The position numbers were made by a program, and so were the translations under genes. A stretch of 3,879 nucleotides of DNA, taken from the IMG/VR virus record IMGVR_UViG_2740892235_000014; one strand, written 5' to 3'. The DNA comes from a virus (Duplodnaviria; Heunggongvirae; Uroviricota; Caudoviricetes). Of the stretch, positions 1 through 3,830 are shown piece by piece. Below the pieces are notes generated by a model. It did no database searches and was not told the DNA's origin. It saw nothing but the letters and a program-made list of their open reading frames with translations. Numbering within the stretch: position 1 is the first letter of the stretch; each line of letters starts with the position of its first letter.

Positions 1-1218
1 ATGAACAAACTGAGCGATACCTTGCTAAGGAAACTTCATGGTAAGCCAGCGGAGAAAAACACGTTTTATAGCGATGGCGGAAATCTGAGCGTGAAATATT
101 TAACATCAGGGAAATTAACCTGGTATTTCACTTACAGGGCAGGAACGGGAAGAGAGACACGACCGGAACGTATTAAGCTGGGAAATTATCCTGATCTGAG
201 CCTGAAAGCAGCCAGGGAAAAAGCCGCCCAGTGTCGCGCATGGCTGGCGGAGGGGAAAAATCCACGCCATGAGATGAATTACGCCGTACAGGAAGCGTTA
301 AAGCCGGTAACGGTTGGCGATGCGCTCACCTACTGGCTTGAGTCGTACGTAAAGGAAAACCGCGTGGATTATATCGCCCTGAAAAGGCGACTTAATAATC
401 ACGTAATACAGTACATTGGCGCTATGCCGCTGGATAAATGCGAGCTACGGCACTGGCTGGCCTGTTTTGACCAGGTGGCAAAGCGAACACCTGTTACTGC
501 CGGATTCGTGCTACAGACATGCAAGCAGGCGCTTAAGTTCTGCCGGAGGCGGCGCTTTGCAATCAGCAACGTTCTCGATGATCTGAACGTGGCGGACGTT
601 GGGAAAAAACCGGATATAAGCGAACGTGTCTTAAGCACCAAAGAACTGGGCGAGTTATTGCAGGCGCTGGATAAAAAAATATTTTCTCCTTACTACGTCG
701 CGTTAATCCGCCTCCTGATTGTCTTCGGAGCCAGGACGGTAGAACTGAGGTTATCGGAGATCAGCGAGTGGGATTTTACCGAAATGCTATGGACCGTTCC
801 GAAGGAGCACAGCAAAACGAAGGTTGCAATATTCCGGCCCATACCGGAAGCGATCCTGCCGTTCGTCACGCGGCTGGTGGACCAGAACAGGCACACGGGC
901 TTATTACTGGGGGAAGTGAAACAGGAGGCTAGCGTATCGCAGTACGGCAGATTAGCGCACAGGAGGCTAAAACACCCTCAATGGTCATTGCATGACATCC
1001 GGCGCACCTTTACAACCATGCTGAACGATTTAGGCGTTGATCCTCACGTCGTGGAGCAGCTTACAGGCCACCAGATGCCAGGAATGCAACGCGTGTACAA
1101 CCATTCCCGCTATATTGATGCGAAACGCAATGCGCTTGATATGTGGGTGGAGCGGTTGGAGATACTGGCGGGAACACATGAAAACGTAACCACGCTACCA
1201 GTAACCAGAATAAAATAA
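1..1218 (+). CDS. int: Site-specific tyrosine recombinase / integrase, P4-like family (405 aa)
   Basis: 405-codon ORF starting at the window edge. N-terminus (KNTFYSDGGNLSVKY...WYFTYR) resembles the arm-binding domain of P4-type integrases. C-terminus has the catalytic pattern: GARTVELRLSE (Arg), HDIRRTF (His-x-x-Arg), LTGHQ, and RVYNHSRY (candidate Tyr nucleophile). The true start could lie a few codons upstream of the window. Confidence 0.9.
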   Translation: MNKLSDTLLRKLHGKPAEKNTFYSDGGNLSVKYLTSGKLTWYFTYRAGTGRETRPERIKLGNYPDLSLKAAREKAAQCRAWLAEGKNPRHEMNYAVQEALKPVTVGDALTYWLESYVKENRVDYIALKRRLNNHVIQYIGAMPLDKCELRHWLACFDQVAKRTPVTAGFVLQTCKQALKFCRRRRFAISNVLDDLNVADVGKKPDISERVLSTKELGELLQALDKKIFSPYYVALIRLLIVFGARTVELRLSEISEWDFTEMLWTVPKEHSKTKVAIFRPIPEAILPFVTRLVDQNRHTGLLLGEVKQEASVSQYGRLAHRRLKHPQWSLHDIRRTFTTMLNDLGVDPHVVEQLTGHQMPGMQRVYNHSRYIDAKRNALDMWVERLEILAGTHENVTTLPVTRIK

Positions 1219-2024: not shown

Positions 2025-2228
2025 TCAGGCTGGTGGGCAATTACCTTGCTTGTTGGGGCCGTATTGTGCTGCCATTTTCATCCGTTCAGAACGTGAATAT
2101 TTTTTTAGAAACTCATCAAGGACAAAAGCGCATGGAGCGAATCTTTCTGATTCATGCTCGAGCGCCATATTTTCGTGCTCTCTGTTCGTTTTTTGCGATG
2201 GTGTATTGGTTGATTCTTTATTGGTCAT
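2025..2228 (-). CDS. Hypothetical small protein (67 aa), paralog of the 2685-2912 ORF
   Basis: Minus-strand ORF starting MTNK. It shares the N-terminal MTN and a C-terminal motif FVLDEFLKKY (FALEDFVDKY in the paralog). It is preceded by the conserved 44-bp family A leader. No recognisable domain. Confidence 0.5.
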   Translation of the reverse strand: MTNKESTNTPSQKTNREHENMALEHESERFAPCAFVLDEFLKKYSRSERMKMAAQYGPNKQGNCPPA

Positions 2229-2285: not shown

Positions 2286-2390
2286 TTATTCTTTGGGTTC
2301 AATACCGCGTTGCTGTAATTCTTTTCGGATTATTCGTTTTATCCAAGCAGCTAAAGAGTCATCACCGTCTTGTTGTTGTGCTTTTTCCAT
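2286..2390 (-). CDS. Possible small ORF (34 aa, MEKAQQQDGDDSLAAWIKRIIRKELQQRGIEPKE)
   Basis: Found by manual translation of the minus strand; it is below the ORF-track size cutoff. Charged, helical-looking composition, weak SD (GGGAAAAG), and its stop abuts the family A copy 1 region. Could be spurious. Confidence 0.25.
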   Translation of the reverse strand: MEKAQQQDGDDSLAAWIKRIIRKELQQRGIEPKE

Positions 2391-2458
2391 CTTTTCCCGT
2401 AAGTCAGGATCTAAACGGAACTGGAAAGGAGGATTACCACGCCTTTCATTTTTGTGTG

Positions 2459-2486
2459 TTGACACGTCAATTACACTCCATATAAT
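2459..2486 (+). promoter_or_regulatory. Consensus sigma70 promoter P1 (TTGACA -16- TATAAT), plus strand, antisense to the minus-strand cluster
   Basis: -35 TTGACA at 2459-2464, 16-nt spacer, -10 TATAAT at 2481-2486; both hexamers match consensus exactly. Confidence 0.55.
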
Positions 2487-2492
2487 GTGTTT

Positions 2493-2508
2493 ATGTGTAT
2501 ATACACAT
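2493..2508. promoter_or_regulatory. Perfect 16-bp palindrome ATGTGTATATACACAT at the predicted transcription start of P1 (operator-like)
   Basis: Read directly; the reverse complement is identical. It sits 7 nt downstream of the -10 hexamer. Confidence 0.5.
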
Positions 2509-2530
2509 TACACACAACTAGCACAAAAAA

Positions 2531-2645
2531 CAACGCCCCGCAGTGATGGGAACACATACGGGGCGTCTAACCAAACCATTAATTGAGGAACGATTATGGC
2601 TATAAAAGAGCATAGCTTACTCTTTATACACACACAAACGCCCCG
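2531..2645 (+). repeat. Family B module, copy 1: leader hairpin + TCTAACCAA + SD + ATG + about 16 codons (MAIKEHSLLFIHTQTP), homologous to 3279-3390
   Basis: Hairpin ACGCCCCG / CGGGGCGT (2533-2540 / 2559-2566), SD GAGGAA at 2585-2590, ATG at 2596, then TACACACACAAACG. It aligns block-for-block with copy 2. The downstream 240-codon reading frame looks like antisense junk (S/C/R-rich) running across the minus-strand genes. Confidence 0.6.
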
Positions 2646-2684
2646 GAAACGGAATAATCCGTTTCATAGTTCGGTTTTGTGCAC

Positions 2685-2912
2685 TCATCCTGGCGGTCGG
2701 TTTTTGCCGGATTTAAGCCGCCGTGGGTATTTATCGACAAAATCTTCAAGGGCAAATTTTTCTGGTGGCACTAAGCGCGGCGCTGGTGGTGGTATTTTTG
2801 TTCTGGTTAGTTCTTCCTCAAGTCTGGCGCAGGCTTCTGACTGCCTTTGCCGGATGATTTCATCATCTTGCGTTTGCGTGTCTTGTATTGGTGATAGTGT
2901 GTTGTTGGTCAT
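2685..2912 (-). CDS. Hypothetical small protein (75 aa), paralog of the 2025-2228 ORF; probably co-transcribed with the upstream RHH gene
   Basis: Minus-strand ORF starting MTNN, with an acidic, proline-rich middle and the C-terminal motif FALEDFVDKY. Preceded by family A copy 2. No recognisable domain. Confidence 0.55.
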   Translation of the reverse strand: MTNNTLSPIQDTQTQDDEIIRQRQSEACARLEEELTRTKIPPPAPRLVPPEKFALEDFVDKYPRRLKSGKNRPPG

Positions 2913-2920
2913 GATACTGC

Positions 2921-2964
2921 CCTGTAAAGCAATGCGCCGTAGTACCTCACACCACGGCGCTGAT
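2921..2964. repeat. Family A conserved leader element, copy 2 (44 bp, hairpin GCGCCG-N15-CGGCGC)
   Basis: 41/44 identical to 2237-2280. It lies between the RHH stop (2970) and the start codon at 2912. Confidence 0.65.
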
Positions 2965-2969
2965 AGTGA

Positions 2970-3149
2970 TTATTCTGATTCTTTGGCCTTGCGGCGCTGG
3001 CGGCGTTTGATCTCGCCTTCAAGTGCCGAAACGATAAATTGCCCTGTACTTTCGCCATCTTCCTTTAAATTTTCTACAGCATCAGCTATTGCGTGTGGTA
3101 CTCGAGCCTCAAGCTTTTTGGATTTTGCATTAACTGCTTTTGTTGCCAT
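2970..3149 (-). CDS. Arc-type ribbon-helix-helix DNA-binding protein (59 aa), putative transcriptional repressor
   Basis: Internal start ATG at 3149 with SD GAGGAA 8 nt upstream. The protein MATKAVNAKSKKLEARVPHAIADAVENLKEDGESTGQFIVSALEGEIKRRQRRKAKESE aligns with phage P22 Arc as I remember it: RWP-REVLDLVRKVAEENG-RSVNSEIYQRV versus RVP-HAIADAVENLKEDG-ESTGQFIVSAL. The 106-aa extension in the ORF track has no SD and a hydrophobic junk-like N-terminus. Confidence 0.7.
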   Translation of the reverse strand: MATKAVNAKSKKLEARVPHAIADAVENLKEDGESTGQFIVSALEGEIKRRQRRKAKESE

Positions 3150-3170
3150 ATCTGATTTCCTCGTTATTAG

Positions 3171-3251
3171 GTGGCTGACAGTATACACACAAGAAAACGG
3201 AAAAACACTATTGACGTGGCTGACACCCGTTACTAATATAGTGGCTGACAC
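3171..3251. promoter_or_regulatory. Three direct repeats of GTGGCTGACA (3171-3180, 3216-3225, 3241-3250): candidate operator array
   Basis: Exact 10-mer three times in the divergent intergenic region. Copy 2 lies in the spacer of promoter P2 and copy 3 at its predicted transcription start. RHH proteins typically bind direct or inverted repeat arrays. Confidence 0.5.
3211..3239 (+). promoter_or_regulatory. Sigma70 promoter P2 (TTGACG -17- TAATAT) for the plus-strand operon
   Basis: -35 TTGACG at 3211-3216, 17-nt spacer, -10 TAATAT at 3234-3239. It has the same position relative to the family B hairpin and ATG as P1 has in copy 1. Confidence 0.55.
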
Positions 3252-3278
3252 CTTTATCAAGGTAATCGATGAAAAGAC

Positions 3279-3390
3279 AAAGCCCCGCAAGTGTCGTTAC
3301 CACTCGCAGGGCTTCTAACCAACAACGTAAACTAGGAGCCGTTATGGTTGCTGTAAATCATATACCACACCTTGTACACACACAAACGGC
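3279..3390 (+). repeat. Family B module, copy 2: leader hairpin + TCTAACCAA + SD + ATG + first codons of the Icd-like ORF
   Basis: Imperfect 14-bp stem AAGCCCCGCAAGTG / CACTCGCAGGGCTT (3280-3293 / 3301-3314, 12/14 paired) with a 7-nt loop, SD AGGAG at 3334-3338, ATG at 3344, then TACACACACAAACG. Confidence 0.6.
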
Positions 3391-3541
3391 CTTTGTGTGG
3401 CGTTTTCTGGCACTGAGTGCCGGAGAATCTCAAATCATCCACGTAACCGCCTGGACGGAACGCGAAGCGCGTAACCGTTGCCCGTCCGGTTGTGTTGCTG
3501 TATTTGCCGCCCGTATTCGTCAGGAGGTGCGCCATGATTAA
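3344..3541 (+). CDS. Small protein (65 aa), tentatively Icd-like (host cell division inhibitor-like / P4 Ash-region type)
   Basis: SD AGGAG 5 nt before ATG at 3344. The protein MVAVNHIPHLVHTQTAFVWRFLALSAGESQIIHVTAWTEREARNRCPSGCVAVFAARIRQEVRHD fits my recollection of Icd-like proteins (VW-F-A, TE-EAR, V-FA-R); this is unverified. The alternative upstream start at 3269 (90 aa) has a weaker SD. Confidence 0.5.
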   Translation: MVAVNHIPHLVHTQTAFVWRFLALSAGESQIIHVTAWTEREARNRCPSGCVAVFAARIRQEVRHD

Positions 3542-3820: not shown

Positions 3821-3830
3821 NNNNNNNNNN
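3821..3830. other. Assembly gap (10 N)
   Basis: Ten consecutive n characters. Contiguity and reading frame of 3831-3879 relative to the upstream sequence cannot be assumed. Confidence 1.

Follow-up and report, generated by a model that had tools for sequence, protein, structure and literature searches.

Tandem cassettes at the left end of a capsid-forming PICI probably combine a divergent repressor gene with a sar-like antisense RNA

The sar RNA of phage P22 is a short RNA of ~70-80 nt that is transcribed opposite to its target, with its promoter located within the 5′ part of the gene it targets (PMC2629481). It forms two stem-loops, of which the 5′ one displays a pyrimidine-rich anti-Shine-Dalgarno (anti-SD) loop and the 3′ one is a terminator, and it is antisense to a ribosome-binding site. 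In the P22 immI region (mnt, arc, sar, ant), sar adjoins small ribbon-helix-helix (RHH) repressors and overlapping divergent promoters, and its target is the antirepressor gene ant behind arc. A different RNA lock is placed on the Icd-like first gene of phage and satellite immunity regions by C4 (P1/P7), CI (P4), and isrK. C4 and CI (RF01695) lie on the same strand as their target; RNase P processes them, and their action depends on short complementarities in loops. CopA of plasmid R1 and the Inc RNA of IncB/IncI plasmids also consist of two stem-loops and pair with a leader starting from a loop. They block the first reading frame of the replication operon and control plasmid replication initiators.

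Gram-negative PICIs, including the prototype cf-PICI EcCIEDL933, have been described as transcribed unidirectionally, with an unclear global repressor and with AlpA alone as activator (PMC6092414). The published descriptions of PICIs and cf-PICIs do not mention the divergent small proteins, repressor, or antisense RNA considered here (PMC6092414; 10.1101/2022.09.08.507074). The window, which is the whole 3,879-nt stretch of a Caudoviricetes record (IMGVR_UViG_2740892235_000014), is 100% identical to a 15-kb island inserted in tqsA of E. coli O145:H28 12E115. This island encodes int, alpA, helicase, SSB, PerC, capsid, protease, portal, HNH, TerS, and TerL. Its length of ~15 kb, int, alpA, replication module, own HK97-type capsid, portal, protease, and terminase genes, and lack of tail genes are those of a cf-PICI, and its int, alpA, rep, PerC, HK97-type capsid, and packaging genes recall the Gram-negative PICIs and cf-PICIs described earlier (PMC6092414; 10.1101/2022.09.08.507074). 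The Sakai Sp7 and EDL933 islands share the same organization, and EcCIEDL933 carries one copy of the RNA gene discussed below. The window is thus the left end of a capsid-forming PICI, and it holds two tandem cassettes. These are probably immI-like immunity cassettes, each combining a divergent repressor with a sar-like antisense RNA switch. Searches of a phage collection returned no DNA match, and matches in a plasmid collection were limited to E. coli records that look chromosomal and to chance similarities in Xylella.

A sequence-only reading of the window had described two plus-strand modules, each with a promoter, a leader hairpin, a Shine-Dalgarno (SD) sequence, and a start codon. All of these elements are present where that reading placed them, and the two modules are homologous. 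A single 1-nt gap suffices to align positions 2522-2641 with 3269-3389, and the two segments share TCTAACCAA, the SD, ATGG, and an identical TACACACACAAACG (2627-2640 and 3376-3389), together with GC-rich imperfect hairpins at 2533-2566 (copy 1) and 3280-3314 (copy 2). Upstream of the A-rich tract, the promoter regions of the two copies cannot be aligned with each other, and the copies differ in the distance from the -10 element to the hairpin (46 and 40 nt). The repeat extends beyond the modules to tandem units of ~700 bp, at 2025-2645 (cassette A) and 2685-3390 (cassette B). Each unit comprises a small protein gene, a 75-nt block, a small RHH-type gene, a promoter, and the hairpin module; the 75-nt block (2218-2292 and 2902-2976) is 80% identical between units. 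The relationship between the copies exceeds chance, as 851-1149 of 5426 complete E. coli genomes carry the module too. It is also found in more than 150 viral contigs.

In cassette A, the minus strand encodes an Arc-like RHH protein of 59 aa with a GTG start (2286..2465; PHROG 228 ‘Arc-like repressor’, E 1.5e-6), which is identical to the protein found beside intact operons in single-cassette islands. Downstream of it on the same strand is a RefSeq-annotated gene for a 67-aa protein (2025..2228; PHROG 21027, E 2e-12). The predicted sigma70-like rightward promoter P1 (TTGACA-16-TATAAT, 2459..2486, plus strand) matches the consensus at 12/12 positions, a grade for which ~1e-3 matches are expected by our estimate in 2.7 kb on both strands, and its -35 element overlaps the GTG start of the Arc-like gene. 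A palindrome (TAATGTGTTTAT / ATATACACATTA, 2483..2510) that is 92% complementary spans the P1 -10 element and is a candidate operator of the Arc-like protein. In cassette B, the corresponding minus-strand genes encode a YlcI/YnfO-family protein of 59 aa (2970..3149; NCBIfam NF041551, E 1.1e-16; PHROG 949, E 3e-23) and, downstream, a RefSeq-annotated 75-aa protein (2685..2912) for which family searches including PHROG gave no match. The predicted sigma70-like promoter P2 (TTGACG-17-TAATAT, 3211..3239, plus strand), assigned to the Icd-like operon, has a 9/12 match, which alone is not significant. Three direct copies of GTGGCTGACA (3171-3180, 3216-3225, and 3241-3250) flank and overlap P2 and are candidate operators of the YlcI/YnfO-like protein. 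Searches of solved structures with both small proteins returned nothing significant; their role as repressors is suggested by family resemblance and by the repeats around the promoters.

Copy 2 had been proposed to head a credible operon, and it does: the first rightward gene (3344..3541, plus strand) is Icd-like (NCBIfam NF033153, E 5e-18) and is the predicted target of the cassette B RNA. In cassette A, only the first 15 codons of an Icd-like gene remain (MAIKEHSLLFIHTQT, 2596..2640, plus strand). Homology stops at 2640, the point at which cassette B abuts the remnant by its 3′ end, and this truncated junction occurs in eight loci with several different terminator hairpins. A protein-guided scan of genome contigs with the Icd-like protein found two loci only. 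The plus-strand frame headed by copy 1, which the earlier reading had called antisense-looking, is spurious. The long plus-strand open reading frames 1834-2586 and 2596-3318 have neither Pfam/NCBIfam support nor conservation between cassettes and were rejected as genes.

Each module most likely encodes a sar-like antisense RNA of ~78-80 nt on the minus strand, as judged from sequence features. RNA B (3267..3350) scores 63 bits with covariance model R1, in whose training set both copies were included, and has a predicted fold of -35.4 kcal/mol (z -5.3). Its predicted 5′ end lies at ~3349-3350, followed by stem-loop 1 (3349-3317), whose loop carries the anti-SD CUCCU, stem-loop 2 (3315-3279), which a terminator scan detects as 15 pairs and a T run, and a U-rich tail (3278-3270). 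RNA B is fully complementary to the 5′ untranslated region, the SD, and the first two codons of the Icd-like gene. The predicted -10 element of its gene, TATGAT (3357..3362, minus strand), falls inside codons 5-7 of the Icd-like gene, and a possible -35 element, TTGTGT (3385-3380), lies 17 nt from it. RNA A (2520..2602, minus strand) scores 84.4 bits with R1, under the same training-set overlap, and folds at -31.1 kcal/mol (z -4.8). It has a stem-loop 1 (2601-2569) with the anti-SD CCUC in the loop, a stem-loop 2 resembling a terminator (2567-2532), and the tail UUGUUUUUUG (2531-2523), with copy 1 ending in GGGGCGUUGUUUUUUG. Its predicted -10 element is TATGCT (2609..2614), and its possible -35 element is again TTGTGT (2637-2632).

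The position of the -10 element points to a promoter. TAnnnT occurs at +14..19 or +13..18 of the coding sequence in 56/56 unique starts and 12/12 clusters, and almost nowhere else. Counted from the model start, it lies at -12 or -11 (6-7 nt upstream) in all 46 unique upstream regions, two of which come from copies found by the covariance model alone. The codons over the box vary (H-T, S-T, V-T, C-R, V-A, and L-T), and the first genes that carry it are unrelated, being Icd-like, GIY-YIG/NUMOD3, HNH_3/AP2, or ArdC-N-like. The -35 sequence TTGTGT is weak. It is the same site as the ACACAA that the sequence-only reading had singled out as conserved, and it is not conserved outside the subfamily with HTQT codons; these codons coincide only with the poorly conserved -35 element, the -10 box corresponding to codons 5-7. 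The case for a promoter is accordingly not built on this -35 sequence. What had been taken for separate motifs, namely TCTAACCAA, the SD with ATGG, and the first half of the conserved codons, resolves into one stem-loop and the -10 box of a predicted antisense RNA gene. Similarly, the suggestion that P1 drives an antisense RNA into the minus-strand cluster gives way to a predicted short minus-strand transcript opposite each leader. A promoter scan of the window did not flag the antisense-RNA promoter. The Hfq-CRAC table of O157 Sakai has no sRNA entry in the homologous island Sp7. Of two candidates picked by coordinate, EcOnc48 proved to be antisense to pmrD and EcOnc33 to belong to prophage Sp6, and both were discarded.

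Copy 1 had also been considered a decayed duplicate, which is true of its downstream operon, now lost, but not of the repressor gene, promoter, operator palindrome, and antisense-RNA gene, all of which are intact. A stronger version of this idea, confined to copy 1, holds that cassette A is an inert relic of recombination between islands in which P1 and RNA A have no present role. The loss of Icd-like homology after 15 codons is consistent with a relic, as is P1 now reading antisense into cassette B. Every copy of this tandem type has the identical truncated junction, which therefore goes back to one ancestral event. Against inertness, single-cassette islands carry an Arc-like gene identical to that of cassette A, P1 keeps its full 12/12 consensus match, and the RNA A gene, which outscores copy B, has lost neither the -10 box nor either stem nor the U tail. 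Moreover, the tandem arrangement persists at at least 95% identity in more than 100 E. coli genomes, and tandem cassettes with different partners occur in ~10 other contigs. The relic explanation is thus rather doubtful, though it retains some weight. On the immI-like reading, cassette B (2685-3390) would control the real operon, and cassette A (2025-2645) would be an intact cassette severed from its operon just past the antisense-RNA promoter region.

The two-stem-loop fold is kept across homologues. In 60 distinct sequences, 92.1% of the pair cells are paired compared with 80.1% in shuffles, and 17/26 pairs show changes on both sides; these conservation measures are inflated, since the search patterns used to gather homologues hold a portion of the element constant and pairs were counted on an alignment that had been fitted to the model. 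Covariation scores 0.337, compared with 0.151 for shuffles (0/500 reach 0.337) and 0.04-0.11 for slid partners, with many of the variants related through recombination rather than independent mutation. MAFFT places the inner helix of stem-loop 1 out of register, so each sequence was folded separately and the alignment was built from the model. In stem-loop 1, UUGGUU, which is the TCTAACCAA of the earlier reading, pairs with the complement of ATGG(C/T)U. An anti-SD (CCUC, CUCC, or UUCC) occupies the apical loop in 35/35 variants, and the inner stems have unrelated sequences among variants despite this constant loop.

Stem-loop 2 is the former “leader hairpin,” with a GC stem and a U-rich tail, and it looks like an intrinsic terminator on the minus strand. 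The GC stem is followed by a T run on that strand only (scan match 3315..3279). U-rich tails average 4.8 U in 9 nt and are broken up in many variants. In nearly all loci, a small Arc-like or YlcI-like gene lies on the same strand 58-136 nt past the terminator. The module might instead be a terminator and nothing else, insulating the repressor promoter from antisense or read-through transcription and producing no discrete RNA. In the tandem arrangement, the hairpin would then end the minus-strand operon of cassette B, and stem-loop 1 and the -10-like box would be incidental. The clear terminator signature fits such a role, copy 1 sits ~120 nt downstream of the cassette B small-protein gene, where a terminator would be useful, and the lack of a reported sRNA in Sakai Sp7 agrees with it. 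However, in single-cassette islands, the minus strand upstream of the hairpin encodes nothing. Stem-loop 1 covaries and always displays the anti-SD loop, and the -10 box is fixed in 46/46 regions at the spacing that a transcript beginning at the foot of stem-loop 1 would require. The same architecture yields a proven RNA in P22-type immI (PMC2629481). An insulating terminator without an RNA is therefore improbable.

The sequence-only reading had placed the structure in the plus-strand leader and attributed it to a conserved RNA rather than to coding constraint. The second part stands, but the fold favors the minus strand. Stem-loop 2 folds better as minus-strand RNA in 44/48 variants, with a mean energy of -21.2 compared with -17.6 kcal/mol on the plus strand (Wilcoxon p 1e-8), and stem-loop 1 is steadier as minus-strand RNA in 35/35 variants (-9.0 vs -4.9). 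Among 1521 pair cells, 206 are G·U when read on the minus strand and would become A·C mismatches on the plus strand, whereas only three A·C cells would become G·U. A cis-acting element in the 5′ untranslated region of P1 and P2 transcripts, whether an attenuator, a protein-binding hairpin, or a helix that controls translation by sequestering the AUG, has in its favor that the promoters lie 40-46 nt upstream and put the hairpin in the leader. The complement of the antisense structure can also partly form in the mRNA (plus-strand fold z -1.8 and -3.5), where it may act as a kissing partner. Nevertheless, besides the weaker plus-strand folds and the asymmetry of the G·U pairs, the plus strand has no U tract after the hairpin, and a leader element does not explain the fixed TAnnnT within the coding region. 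Such an element is very unlikely. A C4/CI-type immunity RNA, processed by RNase P from the plus-strand leader and acting on downstream complementary sites as in P1/P4, is scarcely credible: Icd-like genes are classically preceded by such RNAs, as by isrK and C4 in E. albertii, and an ACCA motif follows the hairpin, but the C4 model, with E allowed to reach 10, still finds no match in the window (positive control 77.7 bits), the conserved structure belongs to the opposite strand (206 vs 3 G·U), and the CCA lies 5 nt from the stem, paired within stem-loop 1.

The antisense RNAs of the window most resemble sar. They are predicted to be short RNAs opposite their target whose promoters lie within that target near its 5′ end, as in P22 (PMC2629481), and they share with sar the two stem-loops, the 5′ anti-SD loop, the 3′ terminator, and the position antisense to a ribosome-binding site. 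As a positive control, a true sar RNA (RF00262, 66.7 bits) was found in an EDL933 prophage, where it covers the ribosome-binding site of ant, and the model built here matches it at 23 bits. This sar has the same layout and similar linker and terminator sequences (UUGUUGAUAACGAAGCCCUG...GGGGCUUC, compared with UUGUUGGUUAGAAGCCCUG...GGGGCUUU in the window). The Rfam sar model (RF00262; gathering threshold 43 bits) has no match in the window at E up to 10 or in four diverse relatives (L093, L104, L019, and L155) at E up to 0.5. In a scan of the window with all of Rfam at E up to 10, nothing fell on either hairpin, with weak chance matches elsewhere, and scans of relatives had the same outcome. 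The cassettes also resemble immI in adjoining genes for small RHH-type proteins and overlapping divergent promoters: Arc-like and YlcI/YnfO matches, synteny, and repeats over P1 and P2 are all present, binding being predicted. Compared with sar, the -10 box is set 7 nt deeper within the gene, and the RNA therefore also covers the start codon. A conserved UUGGUUAGA / AGCCAU closing helix is specific to the window RNA family. The target differs as well. Instead of an antirepressor behind arc, it is the leader-proximal first operon gene of a satellite, which is Icd-like in the window and encodes GIY-YIG, HNH, or ArdC-N-like proteins in relatives.

As an RNA lock on an Icd-like first gene, the predicted system parallels C4, CI, and isrK, and C4 with isrK occupies the same position in a related island of E. 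albertii. Unlike C4 and CI, the window RNA lies on the strand opposite its target, to which it is complementary in full, and it has its own terminator. The proposed loop-initiated pairing and block of first-frame translation by a two-stem-loop RNA also recall CopA and Inc RNA, which have no sequence relationship to the window RNAs. A weak ctRNA_pGA1 match fell on sar, not on the window.

What the analyses show is a structure on the minus strand with a terminator signature, a -10 box at a constant position, conserved synteny, and a likeness to sar. That the RNA is transcribed and blocks translation and that the small proteins repress is inferred. In this mechanism, the divergent Arc-like or YlcI-like protein would repress the rightward promoter (P1 or P2), with the cassette-specific flanking repeats as operators. 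The RNA gene opposite the leader would be transcribed from the complement of ATGG(C/T)T. In stem-loop 1, AGCCAU or AACCAU would pair with UUGGUU and expose the anti-SD loop, and the GC-rich stem-loop 2 would serve as the intrinsic terminator. Being fully complementary to the leader, the RNA could then pair with leaky rightward transcripts, beginning at the anti-SD loop. Pairing would mask the first gene's start codon and ribosome-binding site and would probably make the duplex open to attack by RNase III. Upon induction, strong rightward transcription would titrate the RNA and run over its promoter, flipping the switch.

The conserved elements proposed here to lie between alpA and the replication operon, a divergent gene for a putative repressor and an antisense RNA, are a testable candidate for silencing of the islands, and they could also explain the origin of island-specific immunity. 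We tentatively suggest, at somewhat less than even probability, that the Arc/YlcI-like protein and the sar-like RNA together supply the repression (immunity) system that Gram-negative PICIs and cf-PICIs have seemed to lack. If so, the cassette would be portable, with an RNA gene overlapping the first ~19 nt of the gene it controls, and islands would exchange cassettes by recombining at the conserved UUGGUUAGA and ATGGCU joints. With cassettes in tandem, as in the window, an island would gain two immunity specificities or a decoy against related satellites. Control of the sar/immI type would extend from P22-like phages to satellites. The RNA family escapes detection by Rfam 15 and is found in about one-sixth to one-fifth of complete E. 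coli genomes. The annotation of the locus can also be corrected, as O157 Sakai and EDL933 records show a 247-aa plus-strand “hypothetical protein” across it where the small minus-strand genes should be annotated.

The elements listed by the sequence-only reading, which proposed a duplicated plus-strand promoter, leader hairpin, Shine-Dalgarno (SD), and start-codon module, are all present in the window. P1 (2459-2486) is a perfect TTGACA-16-TATAAT promoter (12/12), P2 (3211-3239) is TTGACG-17-TAATAT, and the hairpins are found at 2533-2566 and 3280-3314. In both copies, the hairpin is followed in order by TCTAACCAA, an SD, ATGG, and an identical TACACACACAAACG. The copies align from 2522/3269 to 2641/3389 with a single 1-nt gap, and the P1 and P2 regions themselves are not alignable. 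The repeat extends beyond this description, forming two ~700-bp units in tandem, cassette A (2025-2645) and cassette B (2685-3390). Each unit contains a small protein gene, a 75-nt block (80% identical), a minus-strand gene for a small DNA-binding protein, a rightward promoter, and the hairpin module.

The 75-nt blocks (2218-2292 and 2902-2976) are located between the RHH-type and small protein genes, overlap the start of the latter, and retain their identity despite unrelated flanking genes. They hold a GCGCCG...CGGCGC hairpin that is terminator-like on the minus strand (2960..2934), and may be an attenuator or another RNA element. Two Cys-rich plus-strand ORFs (1834-2586 and 2596-3318; 250 and 240 aa) cover the small minus-strand genes in antisense orientation, and a 247-aa counterpart carries a hypothetical-protein annotation in O157 Sakai (ECs_1576), EDL933, and ATCC 35150. 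As genes, these ORFs were rejected, having no family support and no conservation between the cassettes; they are probably mis-annotations, with the pyrimidine richness of the plus strand keeping the frames open.

On the minus strand, a terminator scan picked out the copy 2 hairpin, which has 15 pairs and then a T run; copy 1 reads GGGGCGUUGUUUUUUG in this orientation. Homologues were gathered from E. coli genomes and viral contigs using three exact patterns. The minus-strand RNA is more stable in 44 of 48 unique hairpin variants (mean -21.2 versus -17.6 kcal/mol for the plus strand; Wilcoxon p 1e-8), and C·A mismatches on the plus strand become G·U pairs when the minus strand is read. For the window, the predicted minus-strand RNAs fold into two stem-loops (z -5.3 and -4.8), the second being the terminator hairpin. 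In stem-loop 1, UUGGUU (the complement of TCTAACCAA) pairs with AGCCAU or AACCAU (the complement of ATGG(C/T)T), and the loop closed by this helix holds an anti-SD sequence, which explains the remaining motifs of the module (TCTAACCAA and SD/ATGG). Stem-loop 1 is formed in all 35 unique variants; its apical loop contains CCUC, CUCC, or UUCC in every case, and the sequences of its inner helices are unrelated among variants. It is more stable on the minus strand in every one of them (-9.0 versus -4.9 kcal/mol).

A covariance model built from both stem-loops recovers the two copies in the window (84.4 and 63 bits) and ~170 copies across the collected loci. Among 60 distinct sequences, standard pairs occupy 92.1% of pair cells versus 80.1% in shuffles, and 17 of 26 pairs vary on both sides. 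The alignment has a covariation score of 0.337, versus 0.151 in shuffles (0/500 reach 0.337) and 0.04-0.11 for slid partners. These values come from an alignment fitted to the model and from loci gathered by patterns that hold some of the element constant; neither the strand asymmetry nor the folds of single sequences depend on that alignment. G·U pairs on the minus reading fill 206 cells, versus only 3 for A·C, which would be G·U in a plus-strand RNA. These counts and the folds (44/48 and 35/35) assign the supposed plus-strand leader hairpin to the minus strand. The earlier proposal holds for the two copies of the module but not for the strand and nature of the RNA.

A minus-strand TAnnnT hexamer (TATGAT, TATGCT, TAGAAT, TAGACT, TACAAT, TACACT, TAAAAT, or TAACCT) occurs at CDS +14..19 or +13..18 in 56/56 unique gene starts and 12/12 sequence clusters, and is rare elsewhere in the first 50 nt. 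It lies at -12 or -11 from the model start in all 46 unique upstream regions, including two copies found only by the model, which excludes the promoter. The host genes are unrelated (several Icd-like N-termini, GIY-YIG/NUMOD3, HNH_3/AP2, ArdC-N-like, and unknown proteins), and the residues encoded across the hexamer differ, which places the constraint on the DNA. Transcription is predicted to start at the base of stem-loop 1, on an A or C, which would give an RNA of ~78-80 nt. In the window, TTGTGT lies 17 nt upstream of the -10, inside the conserved TACACACACAAACG, as the complement of ACACAA. Because TTGTGT is not conserved in other subfamilies, the -35 of the predicted promoter would be weak or absent.

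The DNA-binding proteins of the cassettes are unrelated in sequence; cassette A encodes an Arc-like protein (PHROG 228, E 1.5e-6) and cassette B a YlcI/YnfO-family protein (NF041551, E 1e-16). In nearly all loci, an Arc-like or YlcI-like gene begins 58-136 nt past the terminator on the same strand, with the rightward promoter between the two. A palindrome (2483-2510) spans the P1 -10 box in cassette A, three GTGGCTGACA repeats (3171-3250) flank P2 in cassette B, and other islands have different repeats at the equivalent position, as would be expected of operators with different specificity. In a homologous locus of E. coli GF4 (L007, 2010-3797), the RefSeq 595-aa 'Icd-like' protein begins 560 nt upstream of the real start, and its frame crosses the Arc-like gene, the promoter, and the antisense RNA gene. 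This protein is probably an annotation artefact.

An extra weak model match (23 bits) is found in an EDL933 lambdoid prophage, just upstream of an ant gene and beside two Arc-family genes, at a site identified by Rfam as sar RNA (RF00262, 66.7 bits). sar is an antisense RNA of the P22 immI region that controls ant together with Mnt and Arc (PMC2629481). The prophage sar shares the two-stem-loop layout and pyrimidine loop of the window RNA, its -10 box is also within the target gene (TATACT at ant +7..12), and its linker and terminator are similar in sequence. The predicted window RNA is described as sar-like in mechanism and perhaps distantly related to sar. It is not called an RF00262 member because the Rfam sar model has no match in the window or in four diverse relatives. 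The C4/CI family also gave no match in the window. In a related E. albertii island (L003, 2247-2435), isrK (61.6 bits) and C4 (77.7 bits) lie upstream of the Icd-like gene and on its strand, in place of the RHH and antisense-RNA cassette; thus, two different RNA-based locks occur in one position.

The window starts with a tyrosine integrase gene (1-1218), followed by an AlpA-family gene (1593-1781). The window is 100% identical to a stretch of E. coli O145:H28 12E115, where it forms the left end of an island of 15 kb that occupies tqsA. Along with int and alpA, this island has Icd-like, RepA-type helicase, SSB, PerC, HK97-type capsid, protease, portal, head-completion, HNH, TerS, and TerL genes, and no tail genes. 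Its organisation is that of a capsid-forming PICI, a layout shared by the prototype EcCIEDL933 and by Sakai "prophage Sp7". Direct repeats of ~21 nt between int and alpA (1263-1303 and 1513-1533; ACAACGTGA(A/C)ACAATG-like) could serve as arm sites for Int or as sites for AlpA. Upstream of alpA lies a perfect inverted repeat of 12 bp (1405-1433; AAAGGCATAAAA / TTTTATGCCTTT), which is the basis of a sub-threshold BSnc120 match and may act after int as a terminator in both directions. The Rfam int-alpA RNA model has no match in the window and only a weak one in L155, another collected locus. A hairpin at 1926-1954 (GCGGCCCC...GGAGCCGC), preceded by an A run and followed by a T-rich stretch, lies between alpA and the leftward small protein gene and probably serves both genes as a bidirectional terminator.

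The most likely function predicted for the duplicated module is an immI-like switch, in which a small repressor would be combined with a sar-like antisense RNA, present twice. This would be a variant of sar/immI-type control, here in a satellite island with two copies. PICIs are described as transcribed in one direction, with an unclear repressor (PMC6092414); thus, the antisense-RNA element appears undescribed in these islands. In Sakai, the Hfq-CRAC catalogue lists nothing within Sp7, and two coordinate-based sRNA candidates were rejected, their positions being elsewhere. In the rightward operon, successive genes share 8-11 nt (ATG 3534 ahead of stop 3541; ATG 3736 ahead of stop 3746), which suggests translational coupling to the Icd-like gene. 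Therefore, a block of the Icd-like ribosome-binding site could silence the downstream genes too. A 10-N run at 3821-3830 is an assembly gap within the third gene of this operon.

The Arc-like gene of cassette A is intact and identical to the one in single-cassette islands; the cassette also keeps the 12/12 promoter, the palindrome as a candidate operator, and a complete predicted RNA gene. Its homology to the Icd-like gene covers 15 codons and stops at 2640, the point at which the 3' end of cassette B starts, and P1 is now directed antisense into cassette B. The junction is shared by eight loci, paired with several different terminator hairpins, and persists at ≥95% identity in >100 E. coli genomes. 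Approximately ten other contigs have two copies, 700-870 nt apart. Cassette A may be a relic, may confer a second immunity specificity, or may supply the operon with a second promoter. A hairpin at the junction (AAACGGA-ATAA-TCCGTTT, 2646-2664) is kept in all truncated copies and could terminate the cassette B minus-strand operon or P1 transcripts.
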